Below are positions 2,450 to 36,825 of a stretch of DNA of 64,000 nucleotides, piece after piece (positions within the stretch are counted from its first letter, which is position 1; each line of letters opens with the position of its first letter). The stretch is from a virus, in the IMG/VR virus record IMGVR_UViG_3300045051_000987, positions 32,001 through 96,000 of that record; one strand, written 5' to 3'. The notes beneath the pieces were generated by a model, which was not told the DNA's origin, made no database searches, and worked only from the letters and a program-made list of their open reading frames with translations. Both the position numbers and the translations under genes were made by a program.

Positions 2450-3274
2450 TCATTCCTCGATCGGACGGTACCCCGTGCGTGCGACCTGACCGAGCATCTC
2501 CCGACGCCAATCGAGCGCCGTGGGAAGGTCGTTCTGCATCCCCGTCTTCTCACGTCGCTCGTGGAAGCTCCACGCGAGAGAGTCTGCCGATCGGAAGCTC
2601 GATCCCGCGAGCGCGATCAGCCCGGTCTTCTTGAGGCCGAAGCCGTGGAGGTTCCGCAGCTCGAGATCGTCGAGGCGCATCGTCACGCGGAGGAGCAGAT
2701 CGGTCGACTGACGACGGCACACCGATCCGACGCCGACGACGGGCTCCTTCGAGAGATCGACGCCCGCGCGCGCGTAGAGCTCGGCGCAATCGAGGTAGGA
2801 CGCCGAGAGCCACCCTTGAAGCACCGGCGCGATCGGGAGGTCGGGCGCGATGCTCCGCAGCTCGAGGAAGTTGTCGACCGTGCGCCGCTGGTGCTCCTCG
2901 ACGCTCAGGCCCGTCTTCGCCGTCACGACGGGCTCGCACATCCAGTCCATGGGCGCCGCCCATTCGAGCTGTCCGACCTCGTCTCGAAGGCGCCGCACGT
3001 CGTCGCAGTACTCGCGCGGCGTGCGCGTCCACCGGCCGTGCTTGTTGAGCTCGGTGAAGCCCCCGGAGTCGAGCGCCCACGGGCCCCGAGCGCGCGGGAG
3101 ACGCGCCATCGCACCGAAGGCCTGACGCGCCACGAAGAGCCGGCACGGGGCCTCCGCGAGCCACCCCGGGCGGTGCACGCCGAGATAGAAGCGGAGGGGC
3201 ATGTCGGAACCCGCGTAGACCGGCGCGGGGGCCTTCACGCGGCCCGGGATCAGGCTGAGGTCGAGCTGACGCAT
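2450..3274 (-). CDS. TGT-fold DNA transglycosylase, DpdA-like (7-deazaguanine insertion)
   Basis: FYLG, LDSGGF, PMDWMCEP, PVLQGW, GVGSVCRR, LHGFG and SADSLAW motifs typical of phage DpdA/tgt-like proteins. Confidence 0.75.
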   Translation of the reverse strand: MRQLDLSLIPGRVKAPAPVYAGSDMPLRFYLGVHRPGWLAEAPCRLFVARQAFGAMARLPRARGPWALDSGGFTELNKHGRWTRTPREYCDDVRRLRDEVGQLEWAAPMDWMCEPVVTAKTGLSVEEHQRRTVDNFLELRSIAPDLPIAPVLQGWLSASYLDCAELYARAGVDLSKEPVVGVGSVCRRQSTDLLLRVTMRLDDLELRNLHGFGLKKTGLIALAGSSFRSADSLAWSFHERREKTGMQNDLPTALDWRREMLGQVARTGYRPIEE

Positions 3275-4778: not shown

Positions 4779-5326
4779 GACGTTCCTTCTCGCACGCGAC
4801 GCGCGCGCACCACAACGAGGGCGAACACGCGCCCGGCTTGATCGCCGGGCATGCGGATCGCGACGACGAGCTCAGGCGCGCGCTCGAGCACGACGAGCTC
4901 GGCGCCGGTGAGCGTGGCCTGGTGTCGCGCGCACGCGAGCGCGTCAGACGCGCCGTGCTCGTCGATCGTCCACTCCCATCCGGGCGTCGTCGCGAAGAGC
5001 ACCTCGCGCGCAGCGCCGTCGACGCCGAGCGACTCGACACGCTCGAGCGGGAGCGTGAGCACCATCGCCGTCGGGAGCTGCGCGCGCTCAGCGAGCGGGG
5101 CTCGCACGCGGCCTCTGATCTTCGACGTGTTCACCCGGGTGAACACGGGGCGCGGCGGACGTCCCTCGAGCGCGCGCAGGCGTCGAATGCACGTCGTCTC
5201 GTGCGGGTGGAAGGCTTGATCCGTCGCTTCCCCGATCGCGCGCGCCGCATCGGCGAAGCGCACGCCTTCAACGCGGATCTTCTTCACGAGGAGCGCGTCG
5301 AGCTCCGCCGTCCATGTCGAGGCCAT
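4775..5326 (-). CDS. Protein with GcrA-like N-terminal HTH
   Basis: Start MASTWTAELDALLVKKIRVEG...AARAIG, 7 nt after the CATGAT box; palindrome copy lies in the linker. Confidence 0.5.
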   Translation of the reverse strand: MASTWTAELDALLVKKIRVEGVRFADAARAIGEATDQAFHPHETTCIRRLRALEGRPPRPVFTRVNTSKIRGRVRAPLAERAQLPTAMVLTLPLERVESLGVDGAAREVLFATTPGWEWTIDEHGASDALACARHQATLTGAELVVLERAPELVVAIRMPGDQAGRVFALVVVRARRVREGTS

Positions 5327-5651
5327 CGGCCCGATCATGCCGCGACGCGTGCTCACGCATCCGGCGCTTCACCTCGGCCCGACCTCGCTCGACGATGCCC
5401 CGCACGACGTCGGAGATCCCGACGCGCATTGCCGGCGACACGGCCTGGGTGAGGAGCCGGGTCGAGACGCGCTCGAAGATCGCAGCCTCGCGATCGGCGT
5501 CGCACGCGTCGAGGCCCGAGCGCACCTTGATCTGAGCGATCCGCTCGAGCTTGCGCCCGCGCGCGATGAGCAGGTCGACGATCGCATCGTCGATCACGTT
5601 GATCTCGTGCCGCACGAGCTCGAGGTCGGCCGGGATGGGCGTGTCGCTCAC
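5268..5651 (-). CDS. Chorismate mutase, AroQ/type II
   Basis: LELVRHEINVIDDAIVDLLIARGRKLERIAQIK...DADREAAIFERV keeps the AroQ catalytic pattern (R, R, K, DxxRE); GTGA overlap with the cmoA-like stop. Confidence 0.8.
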   Translation of the reverse strand: MSDTPIPADLELVRHEINVIDDAIVDLLIARGRKLERIAQIKVRSGLDACDADREAAIFERVSTRLLTQAVSPAMRVGISDVVRGIVERGRAEVKRRMREHASRHDRADGLDMDGGARRAPREEDPR

Positions 5652-6379
5652 GACGACCTCACCGCGAGCCACGCGCCGAAGCTCAGGCACCGCCACACGC
5701 ACTCGACGGTCGTGAAGCCGGCGCCGCGGAGGAGATCCTCGTTCCACCGCGCCGTGCACGGCACGAGCACGCCCTCGAGCGATGCGGCCTTGCGGTCGAT
5801 CTCGTCGCGCGAGTAGCCCGCGGCCTCCTTTTCCGCGTGGTAGAGCGCGGTGAGCGCCTCGTCGGCCTCCGCGTCGCTCCCGAGCACCTTCTCGACGACG
5901 ATCAGCGCCCCGCCGGGCATCGTCGCCTTGAACACGTCGCGGAGGATGCGCTGGCGATGGTTGATCGGGAGGAACTGCATCGTGAGCACCGCGAGGGTCA
6001 CGCTCGCGCGCATGCTGAGCGACGGGTAGCCGGCGCGGAGGTCGGTCCCATGCACGAAGACGCGCCGCGTCGCGATCTCGCCTGCGAAGCGCGTGCGGCA
6101 GACCTCGAGCATCGGCTTCGACGTCTCGACGAGCTCGAAGACGTTCCGCAGCTCCGCGCGCGCGATCAGAGGAGCGATCGCGTCACCGCGCGAGGCGCCG
6201 AGGTCGACGATCGAGGAGCCCGGGCGCGCGTAGCGGTCCGCGAGGTTCGTCACGACGTCGCGCATCGCGTCGAGCTGCGGGATCGAGCGTCGGAGCATGT
6301 CCTCGAAGACACTCGCGACGCTCTCATCGAACTCCCATCGCTCGCGCGCGGGAAGGTGCCCAAGGCTCGACTCGCTCAT
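5648..6379 (-). CDS. cmoA: CmoA-like carboxy-S-adenosylmethionine synthase
   Basis: WEFDESVASVFEDMLRRSIP, DLGASRG, LTMQFLP...PGGALIVVEK, GYSRDEIDRK...LEGVL, AGF...WRCLSFG align along the full length with CmoA. Confidence 0.82.
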   Translation of the reverse strand: MSESSLGHLPARERWEFDESVASVFEDMLRRSIPQLDAMRDVVTNLADRYARPGSSIVDLGASRGDAIAPLIARAELRNVFELVETSKPMLEVCRTRFAGEIATRRVFVHGTDLRAGYPSLSMRASVTLAVLTMQFLPINHRQRILRDVFKATMPGGALIVVEKVLGSDAEADEALTALYHAEKEAAGYSRDEIDRKAASLEGVLVPCTARWNEDLLRGAGFTTVECVWRCLSFGAWLAVRSS

Positions 6380-7581
6380 GGGGCCGAGGATGCCTCGATC
6401 CAGCCCTCACGCACGAGCCCGAGCGGTGCGAAGACGCGATCGCGCAGCTCGCGCCCGATCGCGAACATCATCGGGGGCGGGACGCTGCGCGCGAGCCGCT
6501 CCCATTGCTGAGCGAACGTCCCCGTGAGCTCGAAGTCGTCGGGGAAGCCGCAGATCCGACGCAGCTCGCGGATCGTGAACTTCCGGCGCTCGAGCGGGTG
6601 CGTGACGCTCGCCGCGGGCTCGCCGCCCTTCACCGTGATGCACGGGCTCGGCTTGTTCACCGGCGCCTTGATCAGGTTGAAGTACTTCTCGGACCACACG
6701 CCGGGCCGGAGCTTGTTCCACTCCGCATCGAGGCTCGGAACCATCGCGCGGCGCGCGGCCTCGAGCTCCTCGATCGTCGGCTCGATCCCGCTCGGCTCAC
6801 CGATGATGTGCGGGATCGCTTCGGCGAGCGTGAACGCGCGCGCGAAGGGCTTGGGGTAGGGCACGTCGCTCGACGTCGCGATCCCGAGCTCGCTCGCGAG
6901 ATCACGGCGCACGCCGACGAGGATCACGCGCCCGCGCTGCTGAGGGACACCGAGCCACTGAGCATCGAGCTCGCGAGCGGCCGCGACGTAGCCAGCCGCC
7001 TCGAGCCGCTTCATCACCGTGTGGAAGTAGCCGAAGGCCTTGCCGCGCACGAAGCCCGACACGTTTTCTGCGATGAACGTCTTCGGCTTCACGCCCTCGA
7101 GCAGGCGGAGCCACTCGAAGAAGAGATCGTCGGTGCGCTGCTTCACGCCCGAGTAGGCCTTCACCTGGCCCCATCCCTTCTCGCGCGCGCCCACCATCGA
7201 GAAGCTCGAGCACGGGGGAGAGCCCTCGAAGACGTCGAGCTCTCCGGCCTTCACGCCCGCGCGCTCGAGCACCTCCTCGGGATGCACCGATCGGATGTCA
7301 CGCGGATCGAGGAAGACGCTCGCCGCGTGGTTCTTCACGTACGTCGCGCGCGCCTCCTCGATGAACTCGTTCGCGAAGACGACGTCGAAGCCGGCCATCT
7401 CGAGGCCGAGGCACGAGCCACCGCACCCTGAGAACGTCGACGCGACTCGCAGCCCCGTGGTGCCCCGTGCGCGCGCGATCGCGGCCATGTCGGGGACGCG
7501 GTAGCTCGTCGGCTCAGCTCTTCGTGACGGGGTTCCCGTGCCCGCAGCGCGAGCAGTAGACGATCGCCTTCGAGTTTGCAT
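6376..7581 (-). CDS. DNA (cytosine-5)-methyltransferase-family enzyme, predicted carboxymethyltransferase
   Basis: Motifs I FSGCGG, IV GSPPCSSFS, VI ENV, VIII QQRGR, IX RELRRICGFP; motif X reads LARSV instead of GNSV. Start 7581 (AAGGAG SD) or 7488. Confidence 0.9.
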   Translation of the reverse strand: MQTRRRSSTARAAGTGTPSRRAEPTSYRVPDMAAIARARGTTGLRVASTFSGCGGSCLGLEMAGFDVVFANEFIEEARATYVKNHAASVFLDPRDIRSVHPEEVLERAGVKAGELDVFEGSPPCSSFSMVGAREKGWGQVKAYSGVKQRTDDLFFEWLRLLEGVKPKTFIAENVSGFVRGKAFGYFHTVMKRLEAAGYVAAARELDAQWLGVPQQRGRVILVGVRRDLASELGIATSSDVPYPKPFARAFTLAEAIPHIIGEPSGIEPTIEELEAARRAMVPSLDAEWNKLRPGVWSEKYFNLIKAPVNKPSPCITVKGGEPAASVTHPLERRKFTIRELRRICGFPDDFELTGTFAQQWERLARSVPPPMMFAIGRELRDRVFAPLGLVREGWIEASSAP

Positions 7582-8179
7582 CGTGCTCCTTGAAATCCCC
7601 CGGGCTCTCGCGCCCGCTCGCACCCGGCCGATCGTCGCGCCCCGTCCCGATGTCCTTGAGCGTCGCGAGCATCGTCGTGACCTGCTCGTCGCTCCATCCG
7701 AGGCCTGCGACGCCGGGCTCGTACTCGCGGTGATCGGCGAGCATCTTCGTGAGGAGCTCCTCGTCGTAGCCCGCCGCGCGCCCGTGCTGGTTGTCCGCGA
7801 GCAGGTAGGCCTCGGCCTCCTCGGGGCCCGACCACGAGAGCCCGCGGATCACCGGCACGAGCCAGTCACCGTCGGGAGCGACGTCGATGCGCGCGGGACG
7901 CACCTTGCCGGTCGATCGGAGTGCGAGGAGCACCTCGATGCGTCCGTGACCCGCCACGACGGTCTGCGTCGTCTCGTCGAGCATCACCGGGAGCGTGTAG
8001 CCGAAGCGGTTCATCGACGCGGTCACGCCGTCGACGTCGTGGCGCTTGGGGTTCCGCGGCGCCTGGTGCTCGACGAGCCACGAGAGGCGCTCGTAGCTGA
8101 TCCGCATGCGCGCGGGCTCGGGGATCGGGGTCTGCGGAGGAGTCGGTGAAGGGGTCTTCTTCGTGCGTGCGTTCGCCAT
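7514..8179 (-). CDS. ParB/Srx N-terminal domain protein with C-terminal CxxC
   Basis: RNPKRH...SMNRFGYTLPVMLD...VVAGHGR...AYLLADN. Confidence 0.85.
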   Translation of the reverse strand: MANARTKKTPSPTPPQTPIPEPARMRISYERLSWLVEHQAPRNPKRHDVDGVTASMNRFGYTLPVMLDETTQTVVAGHGRIEVLLALRSTGKVRPARIDVAPDGDWLVPVIRGLSWSGPEEAEAYLLADNQHGRAAGYDEELLTKMLADHREYEPGVAGLGWSDEQVTTMLATLKDIGTGRDDRPGASGRESPGDFKEHDANSKAIVYCSRCGHGNPVTKS

Positions 8180-8224
8180 GTGCTCCCTGCTCGGCGCGAC
8201 CGTAGCAGGGCCAGGGGAGCGACG

Positions 8225-8500
8225 TCAGCCGCTCTCGACGCTCTCGCTCACGACCATCGGGGGCTTCACCTCCGACGTCGGCCACGGTGGACGCACGCGC
8301 CCGCCGTCCTCGAGCATCATCACGCTCTTCACGAGGGTGTTCGGGTCGACGCCGAAGCGCGCGGCCGCGACCTCGAGCAGCGCCTTCGCGATCGACTCCT
8401 CGGAGGAGTCGGCGGGCGTCGCGCAGTACGCGTAGACGATGTGCGCGAGATACTCCTCGGCCGTCACTTCTCGACCACGCTCCTTCTCAGCTTCCGGCAT
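8225..8500 (-). CDS. Hypothetical protein
   Basis: Start MPEAEK after AAGGAGG. Confidence 0.5.
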   Translation of the reverse strand: MPEAEKERGREVTAEEYLAHIVYAYCATPADSSEESIAKALLEVAAARFGVDPNTLVKSVMMLEDGGRVRPPWPTSEVKPPMVVSESVESG

Positions 8501-9011
8501 CTCCGGCCTCCTTCTCGAGGTTCGCGAACTTGAAGCCGCACGAGCACGGCGTCGGTGCGACGAGCGACCTCTCGGCGAGAGCACCGCACCGAGGGCACGT
8601 CGTGTGGACCTTCATCCCTTCGATCGCGCCATCGCCATCGAGCACACCGACCACGCCGGCACGTCGCGCGAACGCGACCGCGCGCCGCGTGACGCCGACG
8701 TGACCCTCGATCCATCCCACGCGAAGCCAGTGCAGACGCGAGCGGATCGAACGGTCGCGCGTGCTCTGCGCGATCATCGCGAAGAGCTTCGGCGCGATGT
8801 CGAGGAGCGCGTCGTCGACGGCGACCTTGCGAGCTGCGAGGCGCGTCGCCATCACCGCGACGTTCGCGCCGATGAGAGCGACGGGGAAGCTCTTCGGCGT
8901 GAAGAGCTGAGGGTGCGCGCGAAGGATGCGAAGCGCCTCCTCGAGAAGCGCGGTCACGCTCTTGAGCTCCTCGGCCGTGAGGGCTCGATCGTCGTGCTCG
9001 TTGTTCGTCAT
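8487..9011 (-). CDS. Hypothetical protein with C-terminal Zn ribbon
   Basis: CPRCG...CSCG. Confidence 0.55.
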   Translation of the reverse strand: MTNNEHDDRALTAEELKSVTALLEEALRILRAHPQLFTPKSFPVALIGANVAVMATRLAARKVAVDDALLDIAPKLFAMIAQSTRDRSIRSRLHWLRVGWIEGHVGVTRRAVAFARRAGVVGVLDGDGAIEGMKVHTTCPRCGALAERSLVAPTPCSCGFKFANLEKEAGDAGS

Positions 9012-9317
9012 GTGGCGTTCATCGGATCAGCGCGAGCCGGGGTGTGGCCGCGATGGTAGCAGGGGTGGGGGCTCGAACGATCGCACCGGCCTTCGACGCA
9101 TCTTCGAGACCATCGACGAAGGCTTCGCGCGCGGCGTGCTCGCCGGCACGCCGATCGGGATCGAAGAGCGCCGTCGCCATGCGGGTCATGATCCGCGAGC
9201 TCCACACCGACGCGTCGAGCGGCGTGCGCCACGTCCATCCGTTCTCGGCGAGCCGCAGATCGAGCTCGGCGCGGGTCTCGTCGCTCATCGTGAACACGGG
9301 GCCGGAGCGTACAGGGA

Positions 9318-10196
9318 TCAGCCCGCGTCGCGCGGGGGTGAGTCGTCCTCGCCATCGTCGCGCGGCATGAGGCGCTGAGCTCGCTCGACGAGGCGCGTGA
9401 GCCGCGTGACCTGCACGCCGCCGTTCGGATCGGCGCCCATGCGGATCGCGTAGGCCGTGAGGCCGGAGACGAGCACGCGCTTCTCGCTCTCGATGGTGTG
9501 GTCGAGCGTGACGCTGCATCCGAGCATGCCGAGCGTCGATTCCGTGTCGGCGGTCGCCGACATCACGAGCTCGGCGACGAAGTCCTCGAAGCTCTGCTCG
9601 CGATCCTTCCACACGTAGTCGGTGAGCCACGAATCGTCGCTCGTGAGCACGTCGATCAGCGTCGCAGCGACGCGCATGAGGCGAGGGAGCGGCTTCGCGA
9701 CGACCTTCTCGATCGCGACAACCTCCTCGAGCCGCGTCTTCGCATCGACGCCGAGCGCCGCGCACGCACGCTCGAAGGCATCCTCGATCGCCGAGGGCAC
9801 GATGCCGGGGAGCGAGGTGAGCAGGCGCATCTTCACGATGGCGCCCGCGAGGCGATCGAGAAACTCGTGCTCGGTGTCGACGAGGGCGCGAGACTGAGGC
9901 GCCATCATGAAGCGGATGTCGAAGACGAGATGGTTCTTCGTCTTGGCGACGTGCACGACCTCGAAGTTGCGCGTGTCGTCCGTCTTGAAGACCTCGTTCG
10001 ACTTGAGGAAGTCGCTGACCACATCGCGCATGGCGCGCCGCGAGGCCTCGGTGTTCGTGTCGCCCGCGAAGAGTGAGGCGAGCGTGTTGCGGAGCCGCGT
10101 CTCGACGTTCTTCGTGACGATGATGGGCTCGGCGATCGAATGGTCCGGCTCCTTGAGCACGACCACGGTTTCGGGATCGAACAGCAAATCAGACAC
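9318..10196 (-). CDS. Hypothetical protein; N-terminal part weakly resembles a tail-sheath C-terminal domain
   Basis: GAGGAGG SD; LFAGDTNTEASRRAMRDVVSDFL...FEVVHV...LVFDIRF. Confidence 0.55.
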   Translation of the reverse strand: MSDLLFDPETVVVLKEPDHSIAEPIIVTKNVETRLRNTLASLFAGDTNTEASRRAMRDVVSDFLKSNEVFKTDDTRNFEVVHVAKTKNHLVFDIRFMMAPQSRALVDTEHEFLDRLAGAIVKMRLLTSLPGIVPSAIEDAFERACAALGVDAKTRLEEVVAIEKVVAKPLPRLMRVAATLIDVLTSDDSWLTDYVWKDREQSFEDFVAELVMSATADTESTLGMLGCSVTLDHTIESEKRVLVSGLTAYAIRMGADPNGGVQVTRLTRLVERAQRLMPRDDGEDDSPPRDAG

Positions 10197-10214
10197 AGGG
10201 ACCTCCTCGAGATC

Positions 10215-11084
10215 TCAGAAGGGGATGTCTTCGGCCTGCTCGTGACCGCACGCCGAGCACTTCACGTGGCGCGTGCGATGCACAGCGCCGTCGACGCCGA
10301 CATCGACGATGGGCTTGAGATCCGTCGAGCCGCACGTGTCGCACTTCGGGTTCATCCACCGCGGCTCGGATGACTCGACGAGGGGTGGGATCGTGATCTG
10401 AACCTGCTCGGCTCGGAGGTCGGTGCCGCACTCCGAACACGAGAGGTGACCGTCTTCGACGCGCGCGCCGCATGCCCAGCACGTGCGCGGGAGAGGCGCG
10501 GGCTCGCCGACCACGACCTTCGAGTGAGCCGCGAGCGAGTTGGCCTCGGCGATCAGCTCCGCGCGCACCTCGGGCGTGAGGTCGGCGAGCCCGAGCTTCT
10601 TCGCCTCGCGCACGAAGCCCGCTTCGATGTCGCCGATGTGCTTGTCGAACTCGGCATAGAGGAAGTGAGCGTTGAACGACGAGACGCCCTCGCTCTTCTC
10701 GAACTTCGCAGCCTCCTCGTCGGTGAAGTCGTACTCGGGACGAGCACACGCGGGCTGCATCGCCTTCTTCGCGTTCTCGTACGCAAGCGCCGCGTCCGTG
10801 AGCGACTTCTCGGCCTCGCGGGCGTTCGTCCATGCGCGCGAGACCGCGTCGTTCGCAGCATCGAGCGCGGTTATCGCCTCCTTCTGCTTCGCCTTCGCAT
10901 GAGCATGGGTCGCCTGAGCGCGCGCGAGCTTGCCCGACGCCTCGAAGAGCTCGTAGCGCGCCTCGGCGACGTCGTCGTACGACGGAGGTGCCTTCTCGGT
11001 CGTGACGGGCGCGACGTCTTCGGCGTCTTCGGCGTCGACGTCCTTCGCTTCGTTCCGCGAGAGCACGTGGCGATGTTCGGTCAT
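10215..11084 (-). CDS. Coiled-coil protein with two Zn ribbons and an SSB-like EDIPF tail
   Basis: CWACG..CSECG, CDTCG..CSACG, ends AEDIPF; leaderless start. Confidence 0.7.
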   Translation of the reverse strand: MTEHRHVLSRNEAKDVDAEDAEDVAPVTTEKAPPSYDDVAEARYELFEASGKLARAQATHAHAKAKQKEAITALDAANDAVSRAWTNAREAEKSLTDAALAYENAKKAMQPACARPEYDFTDEEAAKFEKSEGVSSFNAHFLYAEFDKHIGDIEAGFVREAKKLGLADLTPEVRAELIAEANSLAAHSKVVVGEPAPLPRTCWACGARVEDGHLSCSECGTDLRAEQVQITIPPLVESSEPRWMNPKCDTCGSTDLKPIVDVGVDGAVHRTRHVKCSACGHEQAEDIPF

Positions 11085-11105
11085 GGCCCCATCATGCCGC
11101 GACGA

Positions 11106-13076
11106 TCAGCGGCCCGCGGTGAGCCTTCGGATCCGGTCGCTGATCGTCGCTGCGTCCGCACGACGCGGGAGCGACGACGGAAGGCCCTCGTGACCGCCGA
11201 TGATGCGCGCGCGCACCTCGCCCTTGCGCGTCTGCATCCCTCGAAGCCGACGGAGCGCCCACGTGCGAGCGAACCAGAGCCCCATGAGCCGATCGCCGGG
11301 GTGCGCACCGGGCACGTACGCGCGCATCTCGCCGAGGAGACGACGCACCTCGTCGGGCACGTCCTTGCCGTTGCGGCCGCTCGGGAGGCGCCATCGGTTC
11401 GCCTCGAACTCCGCCGCCATCGCGTCGATGCCGAGCACCTCGTCGTACTTGTTCCGGCCCGTGTAGAAGGGGAGCACCGGAACGCTGATAGACGAACCCT
11501 CCTCGTTCGCGAGGTCGACGATGTGCTTCTGGATGCCGTTGTCCTCGACCACGATGAAGCCGCCGAAGCGGTCCGCGACGTCGGAGAGGTTCCGCATCAC
11601 ATCGCCACCGCTCCATCGACCTGCGCGCGCGGCCACGAGCTGACGCATACCCGAGGGGTGCACCGCGATCGTGAACATCGTCGTCGCGCCGCCGGTCATC
11701 TTCCGCGACGCACCGAGATCGCAGCCCGTCACGATGAGCGTGCCCGACGGAGGCTCGCCGATGTTGTCGACGAAGCGGTAGCCCATGCCGAGACGGAGCG
11801 CGGCGCGGAGCCATTCGGGACGGAACGACATCGCACCGGGGTCACGCGGCTCGCACATGTACATGCGCGCGAACTCGAGCTCGTTGGCCTGCGTCTTCCG
11901 AACCTGTCGGATGCGGTGAAGGGGCCATCGCTCCGGCCACGTCGGGTTCCCCGCTTCGTCGAGCACGGGGTAGCGAAGCGTCACCCATCCGCCCTCACCG
12001 AGCTCGTGCGCGAGGTCTTCCTCGTGCCACGCGTTCGTCAAGAAGACCATCTTCGCCCCGGACGTGAGACGAGTCATGAACGTCCGACGGAACCAAGACG
12101 ACGTGTCCGCGCGCGCGGGAGCGCTCCGCGTGTTCTCGTAGTCGAGGAGGTCGTCGACGACGGCTCGATCGATGCGGGCGCCGAGGATGTTGCCGTGGAA
12201 GCCGAGACAGTAGATCGACGGGTCGCGCGCGAGAGACGCACGCTCGATGGTGATGGCGTCCTCGCGCCATAGACCGCCCGGACGGAGGTGAGGGAACACC
12301 GCCCGCAGCTCCGTCGAGCGCTCGAGGTATTTCTTCGTCGCCGAGAGGTTCTTCTTCGCGCCGTCCTGACCGTTGTTCAGGAACACCGTGCGGAGGTCGG
12401 GGTTGTTCCCGAGCTCGAAGAGCGTGCGCCCGACCGCGAACTGCTGTGTCTTCCCCGACTCCGGGTGTGCGAGGACGATCATGAAGTCCTCGCGGTCGTA
12501 GGTCGCCTGCATCTCGAGGTGGATGCGCGCTTGCTCGATGTCGGCGCCCGTCTCTTCGTCCTTGAGGACGAACTCGTTGAAGGTGTTCACGTCACGCCGC
12601 GCGAGCGCGAGGAGGCTCTCGTAGGCGTACCTCCCGGCCTCGATGCCGTCGGTCGGGAGCATGTCGTCGTCTTCGTCGCCGCCGGGGCTCTGAGAGGCGC
12701 CTGAGAGCGGCACCGAGGCATCCGACTCGATGGGGGGCTCGCCCGAGGCCCATACCGGACCGGTCTCCGACTCGGAACCGACGGGCACGGGGCCCCCGAG
12801 CGTGTCGGATTGATTTAGGATGCGGTCAGTTGCCGATTTTTGTAGCGAATCGGTGGAGGGGGGGACTACGGCCCTGAGCGCGCCGCGCGCGACGGAACTC
12901 GACCCCTCCCCCCCTCCCCCCGATCGTGAACCGCCGGCCACACTGCTCGCCTGCTTCCTGGGCTTGGGGCCTCGTGGTGCGTAGGGATCGACGACCTTCT
13001 TCGTTGCGTGTTCACCCGGGTGAACACGTGAGGGTGAGGGCTGCTCGAGCTGTCCCTTGTACATGCTCCGCTTCAC
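11106..13076 (-). CDS. terL: Terminase large subunit
   Basis: Walker A HPESGKT, Walker B GARIDRAVVDD, nuclease GCDLG and GDRLMGLWFA; the first ~138 aa are low-complexity (alternative start 12662). Confidence 0.88.
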   Translation of the reverse strand: MKRSMYKGQLEQPSPSRVHPGEHATKKVVDPYAPRGPKPRKQASSVAGGSRSGGGGEGSSSVARGALRAVVPPSTDSLQKSATDRILNQSDTLGGPVPVGSESETGPVWASGEPPIESDASVPLSGASQSPGGDEDDDMLPTDGIEAGRYAYESLLALARRDVNTFNEFVLKDEETGADIEQARIHLEMQATYDREDFMIVLAHPESGKTQQFAVGRTLFELGNNPDLRTVFLNNGQDGAKKNLSATKKYLERSTELRAVFPHLRPGGLWREDAITIERASLARDPSIYCLGFHGNILGARIDRAVVDDLLDYENTRSAPARADTSSWFRRTFMTRLTSGAKMVFLTNAWHEEDLAHELGEGGWVTLRYPVLDEAGNPTWPERWPLHRIRQVRKTQANELEFARMYMCEPRDPGAMSFRPEWLRAALRLGMGYRFVDNIGEPPSGTLIVTGCDLGASRKMTGGATTMFTIAVHPSGMRQLVAARAGRWSGGDVMRNLSDVADRFGGFIVVEDNGIQKHIVDLANEEGSSISVPVLPFYTGRNKYDEVLGIDAMAAEFEANRWRLPSGRNGKDVPDEVRRLLGEMRAYVPGAHPGDRLMGLWFARTWALRRLRGMQTRKGEVRARIIGGHEGLPSSLPRRADAATISDRIRRLTAGR

Positions 13077-24983: not shown

Positions 24984-25982
24984 TCACGGCGTGAAGTCGG
25001 CCTTCGGCGTGCTCGTCTCCGAGATCTCGACCTGCAAGCCTCGCAAGCGCTTCGTGACGCGCGCGGGCGTGCGCGGGTCGAGATCGATGCCCACCCCACG
25101 ACGGCCGAGCACGCACGCCGCCTCGAGCACCGTGCCGGTCCCGACGAACGGATCGAGCACCACGTCGTTCGGCCGCGAGCTCGCGAGGATGCACCGGCGC
25201 GGGAGCTCCACCGGGAACGTCGAGTAGTGGTCGCCCTTGTACCGCCCGCCTCCGAACGACCACACGTCTCGGAGGTTCGCGCCCATCGGCTCGCCGTTCT
25301 CGTCGAGCTTCGCCGCGCGCTTCTTGCCCCACCGCCCGAGCCCGTACGACGCAGCTCGAGGATCGGGAACCGTCGCCGATCGCGCGGGGCCCTGCGCCTG
25401 TAGGCGGAGCGTGTTCGGCCTGAGCGGCTGTCGCACGGCGTTCGCGTCGTAGAAGTAGTGCGCGCGCCGCGAGAAGAGGAACACGTGCTCGTGAGACGAC
25501 GTCGGCCGATCCTGCATCGAGCCCGGCACGGGCGAGGGCTTCGACCAGATCACCTCGCTGCGAAGGATCCACCCGTCGGCTTGGAGCGCGAGCGCGACGC
25601 GCCACGGGATCCCGATCAGGCTCTTGCGCGGCAGACCGCACAGCGTGCTCTTGCTCTCGATGTTCGGAACGAGGTCATGTCGCTCGGGCGTCGAGAGCTT
25701 CGAGCTCTTGCCCGTGCTCCCTCGACGCGAGCCCGAGTAGCTGTCGCCGAGGTTCAACCACATCGTGCCGTCCTTCCGCAGCCCGCGGCGCGCCTCACGG
25801 AACGTGAGCACCATCGCCTCGACGAACGCATCGGGCGTCGGCTCCATCCCGATCTGCCCGTCGAGCCGGTAGTCGCGGAGGTGCCAATAGGGCGGGCTCG
25901 TCACGATCGTCTGCACGTTCTCGACGGTGCCGGCTAGCTCGCGCGCGTCGCCGACGAGGATCCGAAACCGCTCCTCGGTCAT
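24984..25982 (-). CDS. DNA amino-methyltransferase, beta class (N4-C/N6-A)
   Basis: TSPPYW catalytic motif, VLDPFVGTGT SAM-binding motif, IWSKP and RDVW. Confidence 0.92.
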   Translation of the reverse strand: MTEERFRILVGDARELAGTVENVQTIVTSPPYWHLRDYRLDGQIGMEPTPDAFVEAMVLTFREARRGLRKDGTMWLNLGDSYSGSRRGSTGKSSKLSTPERHDLVPNIESKSTLCGLPRKSLIGIPWRVALALQADGWILRSEVIWSKPSPVPGSMQDRPTSSHEHVFLFSRRAHYFYDANAVRQPLRPNTLRLQAQGPARSATVPDPRAASYGLGRWGKKRAAKLDENGEPMGANLRDVWSFGGGRYKGDHYSTFPVELPRRCILASSRPNDVVLDPFVGTGTVLEAACVLGRRGVGIDLDPRTPARVTKRLRGLQVEISETSTPKADFTP

Positions 25983-26938: not shown

Positions 26939-27300
26939 CGGTCGCCGGCCTTCTTGATCTCGGTCGACGTGAGGATCGGCGGAGCCTGCGGGACCTTCGA
27001 GATGATCTCAGCACCGCACTGACCTGCGACGTCGGCGGAGGGGTCGTGCCAGTGATCGCCGGCGTGTCCGCGTCGAAGCGTGCACACGAAGACGCCCTCG
27101 CTCACGAGCGTCACCGCGGTCTTGAGCGGGCTCGTCGCCGGCATCGCGGCCGCCGCCTCGGCCATCGCGACGTCATGCCGCCGAAGTACTTCGCGCAGCG
27201 CGCGAGCGAACGTCGGCCCGTCGATCCCCGCTGCGAACGCGAAGGCCTCGAGCCCACGCACGAGGCGCTTCACCTCTTCGTCGTCGCTCACCTTGATCAC
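26935..27300 (-). CDS. Hypothetical protein
   Basis: GTG start after GGAGGTG; CTLRRGHAGDH motif. Confidence 0.5.
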   Translation of the reverse strand: MIKVSDDEEVKRLVRGLEAFAFAAGIDGPTFARALREVLRRHDVAMAEAAAAMPATSPLKTAVTLVSEGVFVCTLRRGHAGDHWHDPSADVAGQCGAEIISKVPQAPPILTSTEIKKAGDR

Positions 27301-29069
27301 GTGGGCACCTCCGCGAGCATCATGCCGCCCATCGGGATCCCGTTCGGCTGAACCCACACCGATCCCGAGTCGAGCGAGAAGCCGCCGAGCTCGGACGCTG
27401 CGAGCGTCACGAGCATCTTCTCCGCGATCGCGCGCGCCGCACCGACGGGCACCGCGTTGCCGATGCGCTCCCGCCAGTCGCTCTGACTCTTGCCGGCGAG
27501 CACGAGCGGCGCGCCCTTCCACATCGTCGGGATCCCTTGGAGCGACGCAAGCTCGAGCGTCGTGAGCGGGCGGTGCCATGTCCCGTCCTTCGCGATGATC
27601 ACGGGGAGGAACGACGGCGCCTTCTTCGGCGTCGCGGCCGCGAGCCTGAGCGCCTCCTCGATGTCGGCGTTGAACGATGGGCCCGTGCGCGGCTCCGCCA
27701 CCGCGTACGCGCCGCACCCAACATGCGCGGTGCCTGCGATCGTGCGCGCGGCCTGCTCCCACCCGAGCACGGCATAGCCGGCGTCATAGGCGTACTTCAC
27801 GCGGACATCGGCCACACGCGGATCACCGACAGCGGGCCCGCCCGATCCGGGCTGCGTCGCCTTGATCACCGTGCGCGCGGGCTCGCTCCACTTCCCGACG
27901 GCGTACTTGTTCCAGTGCCGGCCCTCGCTCGGCGGGAGCTCGAGCGCGCGCGGGTCGGCCACCGCGAAGCGACCGTTCGAGGGGAGGCTCTCGCCGCACA
28001 CCGCGCCGGTCGGTTCCTCCCACGGCGAGACGCCGTAGGCGCCCGCGTGCGGCCCTCGGGGGTCGGCGACAGCGAACGCCCCGGTCGAGACGCCTGCTCG
28101 CCCTGTGACGGTCGGCGCGGGGCCCTCCCATGCCTTCACGCCGAGCACGCCCCCGAACCATTCGATCCGCGGTTCCTGCACGACGCCGATCGCGTTCGCA
28201 CCGGCGCCCGTGATCGTGCCGGTCGGCTCATCCCACGGCGCGACCTCGTGCCGCTTGAAGACCTCGCGCCTCGCCTGACCCTCGGCGAGCACGCCTTCGA
28301 GGTCACGCCAATCGCCGCCGGCCGGGATCATCGCGATGCGGACCCAGTTGAGGAACGAGATCTTCGGGAGCTCGTGGATCTTCCCGAACGCGCGCGCGTC
28401 CTCTGTCGCCGGCACGGGGAGCGACTCGAGCACCTCGCCGCACGCGCGCACCCGCTTCTTCGGGGGCTGGTAGAGCAGGCTCGAGCACCGCGCCTCGAGC
28501 CTCGCGACGAGCAGGTAGCGCCGTCGACGCTGAGCGAGCCCGCCGATCTCACCGCAGTCGTGGAAGCCCTCGTGCAGCCGGTAGCCGACGCCGCGGAGGA
28601 GCTTCTTCACCTGCTCGAGCATCGCCTTCGCGCGCGTCTTGAGGCGCGGCACGTTCTCGAGGAGCACGAGCCTCGGGAGCGAGCCCTTCCACGCCTCGAT
28701 CATCTTGCGCGTCCACGTCAGCGCGAGCGTGTTCATGCGCTGATACTTCTCGGTCTCGGCGAGCTCCTTCGGGAGGAGCCCGCTCGCCCCCTTGCACGGC
28801 GGGCTCATGAAGACGCAGTCGGGACCGATCGCGCCGTACCGCTCGAGGAGCTCGGCGACGGTGATCTCCTCGACGTCGCGGTGCCACGCCGTGCGCGTGT
28901 CGGTGAGGTAGTCGAAGTCGCGACACGCGTCCGGATCGAAGTCGATCCCGCCGATGCACTCGAAGCGGAGCGCGTGCCCGAAGAGGTGCGCGTGCGCATC
29001 GAGGAAGCCGCGAGCTCCCGCGCCGAGACCACCGAAGGGGAAGAGCGCGCGGAAGACGATCTCGCTCAC
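27297..29069 (-). CDS. DNA (cytosine-5)-methyltransferase with repetitive target-recognition region
   Basis: FGGLGAG, SPPCKG, ENVP, QRRRR, canonical motif X IGNAVP; repeated W-x-x-P...AVADPR units. Confidence 0.9.
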   Translation of the reverse strand: MSEIVFRALFPFGGLGAGARGFLDAHAHLFGHALRFECIGGIDFDPDACRDFDYLTDTRTAWHRDVEEITVAELLERYGAIGPDCVFMSPPCKGASGLLPKELAETEKYQRMNTLALTWTRKMIEAWKGSLPRLVLLENVPRLKTRAKAMLEQVKKLLRGVGYRLHEGFHDCGEIGGLAQRRRRYLLVARLEARCSSLLYQPPKKRVRACGEVLESLPVPATEDARAFGKIHELPKISFLNWVRIAMIPAGGDWRDLEGVLAEGQARREVFKRHEVAPWDEPTGTITGAGANAIGVVQEPRIEWFGGVLGVKAWEGPAPTVTGRAGVSTGAFAVADPRGPHAGAYGVSPWEEPTGAVCGESLPSNGRFAVADPRALELPPSEGRHWNKYAVGKWSEPARTVIKATQPGSGGPAVGDPRVADVRVKYAYDAGYAVLGWEQAARTIAGTAHVGCGAYAVAEPRTGPSFNADIEEALRLAAATPKKAPSFLPVIIAKDGTWHRPLTTLELASLQGIPTMWKGAPLVLAGKSQSDWRERIGNAVPVGAARAIAEKMLVTLAASELGGFSLDSGSVWVQPNGIPMGGMMLAEVPT

Positions 29070-35943: not shown

Positions 35944-36825
35944 TCACGCCGCTTCGGCTTCCTCCGCTTCCTCCTCGGTCGCGAGAAGGAGATCGACAGC
36001 CTTCTCAGCCTCACGCGCGACCGTGAAGATCGCGTGCTTGTCGGCCTTGAGCACCTTGATCCACGAGGCGAGGTATTCCGCGTGCTGGATGCGCCCGACC
36101 ACACCGAGGCGTGCGCACGCGAACGCCGCACCGAGCTCGGCGACGAGCTCCTCCGTCGCATAGGCGTCGTCGCCGAAGCGCTTCCCGAACGCGCGCGCGT
36201 TGCGGCTCTCGTGACCCGTCCAGTGCACGAGCTCGTGCAGAAGCGTCGACTCGTACTCCTCGCGCGTCGCGAACGCGTCGGCGACCGGCATCCCGATCGT
36301 GTCGCTCGATGGCGAGAAGAACGCACGGTCACCACCACGCACGACCTTGGCACCGACGCGCGCCGCCACACGATCAGCCTCGCCGTCGACGTGCGTGGGC
36401 GCGGGGGTGCGCGCGTCGAGCTCAAGCCCGTCGCACTGCTCGACGTTGAAGAGCGAGAACGTGCGCGCCATCGGGATCCGCTTCTCGTTCGGCGTGCCCT
36501 CGTCCTTCACGAGCCACTTCCAGAACACGATCGACGTCGCCTTCTCGCCCTTGCGGACCGAGCCGCCGAGATCGCGGGCTTGGTTGAACGTGACCCAGCG
36601 CGTGTCAGCGTAGCCCTTCGTCAGCGCAGAGGCCCACAGCATCACGACGTTGACACCGCGGTAGGTGCGACCCGTCGACGCGTTCGACGGTAGCTCGAGG
36701 CCCGTCGTCGGCCCGACGCCATCGCGCCACGGCTTCACCCAGGGAGCAGTGCCGGCCTCGAGCGCCTCCACGATCTTCGCCGTCACCTCAGCCGCCACGT
36801 CCCGCTTCGTCGTCTCGTTCTTCAT
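35944..36825 (-). CDS. ardC: ArdC-like antirestriction protein (ssDNA-binding plus zincin-like domain)
   Basis: PWVKPW, YRGVN, WVTFNQA...VRKGEK, FNVEQ, LHELVHWTG, YATEELVAE, YLASWIKVLK. Confidence 0.92.
   Translation of the reverse strand: MKNETTKRDVAAEVTAKIVEALEAGTAPWVKPWRDGVGPTTGLELPSNASTGRTYRGVNVVMLWASALTKGYADTRWVTFNQARDLGGSVRKGEKATSIVFWKWLVKDEGTPNEKRIPMARTFSLFNVEQCDGLELDARTPAPTHVDGEADRVAARVGAKVVRGGDRAFFSPSSDTIGMPVADAFATREEYESTLLHELVHWTGHESRNARAFGKRFGDDAYATEELVAELGAAFACARLGVVGRIQHAEYLASWIKVLKADKHAIFTVAREAEKAVDLLLATEEEAEEAEAA

Follow-up and report, generated by a model that had tools for sequence, protein, structure and literature searches.

A predicted DNA cytosine C5-carboxymethyltransferase of the CmoX family, linked to CmoA-like and chorismate mutase genes in an uncultured phage

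The locus described here raises the question of whether a phage homologue of the DNA cytosine C5-methyltransferases, which has an arginine where motif X normally has an asparagine, still uses SAM or has turned to carboxy-SAM (Cx-SAM) as its cofactor. The window, by which we mean the whole stretch of 64,000 nucleotides that was analysed, corresponds to bases 32001-96000 of an IMG/VR virus record of 113,552 bp, to which CheckV assigns a completeness of 100%. The genome is 68% GC, has nearly all its genes on one strand and belongs to an uncultured phage; a megablast search of positions 5000-13000 against isolate phages gave no match, and its PolB is at most 22.5% identical to that of any isolate phage. 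A preliminary description of this DNA had drawn attention to the motif-X arginine of one C5-methyltransferase gene, taken a second such gene as an internal control, and interpreted the difference as a natural switch of cofactor specificity. Both underlying observations are borne out by translation. Motif X of the gene at 6376-7581/7623 on the minus strand is QQWERLARSVPP; the reading frame 6376-7623 encodes 415 amino acids and contains FAQQWERLARSVPPPMMFAIG, its residue 379 is Arg, and FAQQWERLARSVPPPMM is the stretch of it that carries this residue. Arg379 is encoded by CGC on the minus strand, and the plus strand accordingly reads gcg at 6487-6489, exactly where this codon had been placed. 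The second C5-methyltransferase reads SDWRERIGNAVPVGAA and keeps the canonical motif X RERIGNAVP, as had been stated. A whole-genome search recovered only these two C5-methyltransferase genes in the complete 113.5-kb genome.

The proposed switch presupposes that the arginine aligns with the asparagine that contacts the cofactor, and this proved to be the case. HMMER alignments set Arg379 opposite the Asn of GNAVP both in M.HaeIII and in plant MET1, which is a DNMT1-family enzyme, and HMMER also pairs ERLARSVPP of the window protein with ERVGRMVPP of 8YF3, bringing Arg379 onto Arg350, a match that MAFFT reproduces. The entry 8YF3 is the structure, with Cx-SAM, of SpCmoX, a DNA cytosine C5-carboxymethyltransferase of Synechococcus phage S-B43 (Yang et al., Nat Commun 2025, PMC12783734), in which Arg350 replaces Asn304 of M.HhaI and contacts the carboxymethyl group of carboxy-SAM. 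The engineered precedent invoked in the preliminary description, M.MpeI N374K, was likewise cited correctly. This enzyme and M.MedI N377K, of DM-Seq and CMD-seq, are carboxymethyltransferases that owe their use of carboxy-SAM to a positively charged residue at this site of motif X, with SAM activity and CpG specificity kept. They differ from the window protein in that the new residue is Lys rather than Arg and the rest of the canonical SAM pocket is kept, whereas the natural family has changed at further positions. Since the M.MpeI structure was not among the sequence matches from our search of solved structures, the equivalence with N374 rests on the motif-X alignment with M.HaeIII, MET1 and SpCmoX, together with the statement in PMC12783734.

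The kinship with SpCmoX extends well beyond motif X. Among the sequences of solved structures 8YF3 is the best match of the window protein (E 1.8e-59), the next being M.HaeIII (E 1.4e-20). A structural comparison, which had also been suggested, was made with an AlphaFold2 model built from 29 homologues (mean pLDDT 75, about 83 around Arg379), and the top PDB match of this model in Foldseek is 8yf3 (E 2.2e-25, TM 0.67/0.74). A three-way MAFFT alignment with the proteins of S-B43 and of Streptomyces phage TurkishDelight gave 36.9% identity to SpCmoX and showed that its F25, E47, F48 and D69, which contact the adenine and ribose, its S95-C98 and its R350 are conserved as F64, E86, F87, D109, S135-C138 and R379, respectively. 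The SPPC motif with the catalytic Cys is thus S135-P-P-C138, and as the Cx-SAM contacts named in PMC12783734 are conserved throughout, along with SPPC and R350, the pocket itself argues for a CmoX enzyme. The C5-methyltransferase fold is also common to the two proteins, as is a Ser where motif IV canonically has Gln, and each is the product of a phage gene that is linked to a phage cmoA. Judged by its sequence, the gene has every feature by which CmoX is recognized, and we regard it as very probably encoding a CmoX-family DNA cytosine C5-carboxymethyltransferase. Two differences count against this reading: the identity of 37% to the characterized SpCmoX, from which the activity would be assigned by analogy, and the Ala before the Arg, where SpCmoX has Gly. 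The sampled relatives read LGR[A/S]VPP, and Ala in place of Gly before the Arg or Asn occurs in the window enzyme alone. The CmoX family is already known, having been published in December 2025 with 5,615 homologues that have SPPC and R350 (PMC12783734); the window gene is hence a further member rather than a discovery, and it extends this newly described family of 5-carboxymethylcytosine DNA-modification systems to a high-GC, uncultured phage.

The start of the gene is likely to be the ATG at 7581 (residue 15 of the 6376-7623 frame), with the GTG at 7623 as a possible alternative. Met46 was rejected as a start because a conserved N-terminal motif, YRVPxM, lies upstream of it, which places the start at 7581 or earlier. 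With the ATG at 7581 as start, the first 68 nt of the gene (7514-7581) are shared with the end of the ParB-like gene. Its N-terminal leader is Arg-rich, as is that of TurkishDelight gp123.

Table 1. Features of the window discussed in the text, with positions counted from its first nucleotide
Feature	Position	Strand	Evidence and remarks
DpdA homologue, 7-deazaguanine DNA transglycosylase	2450-3274	-	PF23859 E 1.6e-63
AroQ-type chorismate mutase	5268..5651	-	PF01817 CM_2 E 1.1e-9; start overlaps cmoA stop (GTGA)
CmoA-like carboxy-SAM synthase (predicted)	5648..6379	-	TIGR00740 E 5.3e-42; start overlaps CmoX stop (ATGA)
CmoX-type DNA cytosine C5-carboxymethyltransferase (predicted)	6376..7581	-	PF00145 E 7.6e-49; 8YF3 E 1.8e-59
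Motif X, QQWERLARSVPP	~6475-6510	-	Arg379 aligned to SpCmoX Arg350 and to the Asn of GNAVP
Motif IV, SPPCSSFS	7198..7221	-	catalytic Cys138, then Ser139 where canonical enzymes have Gln (PCQ)
ParB-like protein	7514..8179	-	phrog_620 E 3e-25; directly upstream of CmoX
Large terminase	11106-13076		upstream of the ParB-like gene in transcription order
N6/N4 methyltransferase	24984-25982		
Second, canonical C5-methyltransferase (internal control)	27297-29069	-	PF00145 match; motif X RERIGNAVP

The idea of a natural switch to carboxy-SAM agrees with the experiments on SpCmoX, which accepts Cx-SAM and not SAM; it produces 5cxmC in vitro, and its production of 5cxmC in E. coli depends on the presence of cmoA (PMC12783734). 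What does not stand is its description as a change of one residue. The R350N variant of SpCmoX is inactive with both cofactors (PMC12783734), and in a comparison of 20 Arg-type with 9 Asn/Asp-type relatives six further alignment columns, including positions 158, 159, 164 and 165, separate the two types completely. In motif IV the Arg-type proteins have PCA, PCS or PCC, whereas all nine Asn/Asp-type proteins have PCQ, as do M.HaeIII and MET1, whose PPCQSWS and PPCQGFS align with SPPCSSFS of the window enzyme; the latter and SpCmoX have PCS, and TurkishDelight has PCA. Asp165, which lies in DDLFF, is common to the window enzyme and SpCmoX. These column differences, taken with the published inactivity of R350N, indicate that the pocket was remodelled at several positions. 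As the Asn-type sequences form one clade, the separating columns could in part be clade markers, and the strongest case is that of the motif-IV Gln, a residue canonical across the whole superfamily. Given that R350N is inactive and that the Arg co-varies with the loss of this Gln, an R-to-N revertant is unlikely to restore the use of SAM. The coupling of the Arg with the loss of the PCQ Gln goes slightly beyond the published account and should be useful both for annotation and for the engineering of cofactor specificity.

A test of whether an Arg at this site goes together with an adjacent cmoA had further been suggested. This was examined in 47 viral or phage loci and 4 loci from bacterial assemblies, with relatives 38-57% identical to the window enzyme, and the residue at position 379 was readable in 49 of these 51. 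Arg is present in 32 of the 49, and a cmoA homologue lies in the examined flanks of 28 of these 32, in most cases on the same strand and 9-40 bp further downstream; none was found in the examined flanks of the 17 non-Arg loci (15 with Asn, one with Asp and one with Cys). The exceptions are the locus of Erwinia jumbo phages, in which cmoA is about 17 kb away, and a single sequence represented three times (L013-L015), with no cmoA in the flanks examined. The motif-X Arg is therefore not a chance oddity, as it recurs in 32 of 49 related loci and tracks an adjacent cmoA in the sample, and it offers a usable sequence marker for the 5-carboxymethylcytosine family. The correlation thus turned out as predicted, but it stems from about two independent changes: the Arg/non-Arg state changes only twice on the maximum-likelihood tree, and an independent-pairs test had 2 pairs only, which puts significance out of reach. 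Hence the association represents essentially one or two evolutionary events and not 49 independent observations, and this statistical dependence counts against the CmoX reading. We do not claim that the Asn-type clade is a reversion among Arg-type sequences, for the tree has no root and is explained equally well by one switch if the root is placed on the stem of the Asn clade. The sequence with Cys (L038:71-1186), in which Ala also replaces the invariant Glu of motif X and a stop codon interrupts the reading frame, is probably a decaying copy.

The genes around the transferase bear directly on the source of its presumptive cofactor. In operon order they encode the ParB-like protein, CmoX, a CmoA-like Cx-SAM synthase and an AroQ chorismate mutase, the last two starting with 4-bp overlaps with the preceding stop codon; a NUDIX hydrolase and the DpdA homologue are encoded further downstream of the mutase. 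Many of the related loci likewise have a homologue of the ParB-like gene upstream of that for the transferase, and the ParB-like protein of the window is a weak match to TurkishDelight gp122; Pfam ParB_N had no match anywhere in the genome, and the ParB-like call rests on PHROGs. The CmoA homologue scores 144.1 bits against TIGR00740, under the curated equivalog cut-off of 193.3, with this still its best-scoring family. It aligns with E. coli CmoA (4GEK) over residues 14-241 (E 5.5e-32), the solved structures closest to it in sequence are the CmoA entries 4GEK, 4IWN and 1IM8, and its reading frame is full length with a strong coding bias (GC3 0.93). Tyr39, Asn132 and Arg199, which contact the cofactor in E. 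coli CmoA, with Arg199 forming a salt bridge to its carboxylate (Byrne et al. 2013, PMC3663124), are replaced by Leu, Val and Ala. The nearest relatives of the window protein (those of L007, L036 and L044) keep Tyr39 and Arg199, and in the validated SpCmoA the three positions are occupied, by alignment, by Tyr, Leu and Glu. The sub-threshold score counts against the CmoX reading. As the active SpCmoA also dispenses with N132 and R199, activity in the phage clade does not hinge on these residues, and the altered contacts amount to only a weak objection to that reading. The chorismate mutase, a protein of 127 aa confirmed by a whole-genome search, scores 38.8 bits against a PF01817 gathering cut-off of 27, with profile positions 1-59 of 80 matched, and is presumed to supply CmoA with prephenate. 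A second CM_2 gene was found on the L044 contig (G003:C1:13175-13402), 3 kb upstream of a cluster of CmoX, Asn-synthetase and CmoA genes. No close relatives were recovered when viral contigs were scanned with the CmoA homologue and the chorismate mutase of the window, and our literature search found no work combining chorismate mutase, CmoA and phage. PMC12783734 makes no mention of chorismate mutase and lists the supply of prephenate as an open question, to which a mutase encoded in the operon itself speaks directly.

These data can be set against other accounts of the locus. One would be an ordinary SAM-dependent m5C methyltransferase, in which the motif-X Arg is merely tolerated and the neighbouring CmoA serves something else. 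The catalytic motifs of the C5-methyltransferases are indeed all intact in the window enzyme, and M.MpeI N374K and M.MedI N377K still methylate with SAM. Nevertheless, we consider this very unlikely: wild-type SpCmoX, with the same Arg and pocket, rejects SAM (PMC12783734), the Arg tracks cmoA, the canonical motif-IV Gln has been lost along with the Asn, and the phage already has a canonical C5-methyltransferase.

The remaining alternatives concern the CmoA-like protein. Its classical role being tRNA modification, it could chiefly feed the synthesis of cmo5U in host tRNA or drain host SAM, its linkage to the transferase being incidental; SAM depletion was indeed raised as a possible side effect in PMC12783734. 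Neither CmoB nor a tRNA gene was found in the complete genome, so that the tRNA route for Cx-SAM is not encoded there; moreover, cmoX and cmoA are coupled in translation and are found together in 28 of the 32 Arg-type loci, and the phage-encoded chorismate mutase argues for a high flux to Cx-SAM as the product, leaving this account scarcely credible. It might instead be supposed that the CmoA-like protein is inactive or makes another SAM derivative, so that the transferase installs a different anionic group or depends on host CmoA. In E. coli the cofactor of SpCmoX can come from the CmoA of the host (PMC12783734), and the score under the NCBIfam cut-off and the substitutions of Y39, N132 and R199, of which the nearest relatives keep the first and last, could be read in this way. 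Set against them are the highly active SpCmoA, itself devoid of N132 and R199, the intact and strongly biased reading frame, the CmoA structures as best relatives, and an adjacent chorismate mutase that fits the use of prephenate; we accordingly give this possibility very little weight.

A CmoX-type system can also be compared with its known counterparts. CmoA of E. coli converts SAM and prephenate to Cx-SAM, and this chemistry is proposed also for the window homologue, which aligns end to end with 4GEK; the acceptor here, however, would be a DNA cytosine reached through a C5-methyltransferase homologue and not tRNA ho5U through CmoB, for which the window genome has no gene, and CmoA Arg199 is not conserved. 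In S-B43 the order is CmoA, CmoY and CmoX; the cofactor comes from the phage CmoA, and the carboxymethyl group is afterwards joined to glycine by the ligase CmoY (PMC12783734). The window, in contrast, has ParB-like, CmoX, CmoA and chorismate mutase genes without CmoY, and a search of the complete 113.5-kb genome for a CmoY-type ligase (PF00733, Asn-synthetase) gave no match at E <= 0.01. The closest homologue from an isolate phage is the uncharacterized gp121-gp125 region of TurkishDelight, in which gp123 is 42.8% identical to the window enzyme and shares the motif-X Arg (WERIGRAVPP) and the N-terminal YRVPxM, with ParB-like genes upstream and a CmoA-like gene downstream. Unlike the window genome, that of TurkishDelight encodes, between CmoX and CmoA, a protein of the glutamine-amidotransferase/Asn-synthetase type, from which an amide would be predicted; tblastn detected no chorismate mutase in the 8.4 kb examined of this phage.

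Based on these comparisons the pathway would run as follows. The AroQ mutase would convert chorismate to prephenate, and the CmoA homologue would combine this with SAM to form Cx-SAM. The transferase would flip out its target cytosine, attack C6 through Cys138 and alkylate C5, as in an ordinary C5-methyltransferase, using a pocket built for carboxy-SAM in which Arg379 in place of the conserved Asn would pair with the carboxylate of the cofactor and the bulky motif-IV Gln would have given way to Ser139. The predicted product is 5-carboxymethylcytosine in the phage DNA, which may protect it from host restriction. As the complete genome encodes no CmoY of the Asn-synthetase type, 5cxmC may be left as the free base or be acted upon by an unrecognized enzyme. 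This raises the possibility, which we advance tentatively and hold to be less than probable, of a ligase-less, self-feeding variant of the CmoX systems, in which chorismate mutase, CmoA and CmoX lead from chorismate and SAM to free 5-carboxymethylcytosine, with which the modification of the DNA base would end; besides this system the phage has DpdA, an N6/N4 methyltransferase and a canonical C5-methyltransferase. Under this proposal the choice of cofactor would be set by a signature (Arg in motif X, the loss of Gln from motif IV, and positions 158, 164 and 165) rather than by the Arg alone, and the loss from CmoA of Y39 and R199, which clamp the product, might favour a fast release of Cx-SAM.

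The preliminary description had also suggested a use of the enzyme in 5mC sequencing. Those who develop enzymatic 5mC sequencing could take an interest in a natural carboxymethyltransferase that may be efficient, provided that it has a suitable target sequence. Current methods need CpG specificity, the target of SpCmoX is GpC (PMC12783734), and the target-recognition region of the window enzyme is dissimilar to that of SpCmoX and was modelled poorly by AlphaFold2; the GpC specificity is thus not transferable to it, and the suggestion is speculative.

With the DpdA homologue, the N6/N4 methyltransferase, the canonical C5-methyltransferase and the CmoX system, the phage may have four ways of modifying DNA; QueC was not found in the complete genome. 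The window additionally encodes an ArdC-like antirestriction protein (35944-36825, minus strand) with an ArdcN and a zincin peptidase domain. Among the related loci, Erwinia phage pEa_SNUABM_16 (L003:3947-6076) and its relatives have a CmoX homologue of 709 aa that is matched in two pieces around a large insertion, and seven further loci, of both the Arg and the Asn type (L036, L039-L042, L044 and L046), show a similar two-piece match, with an insertion of 100-220 residues between the N- and C-terminal halves.
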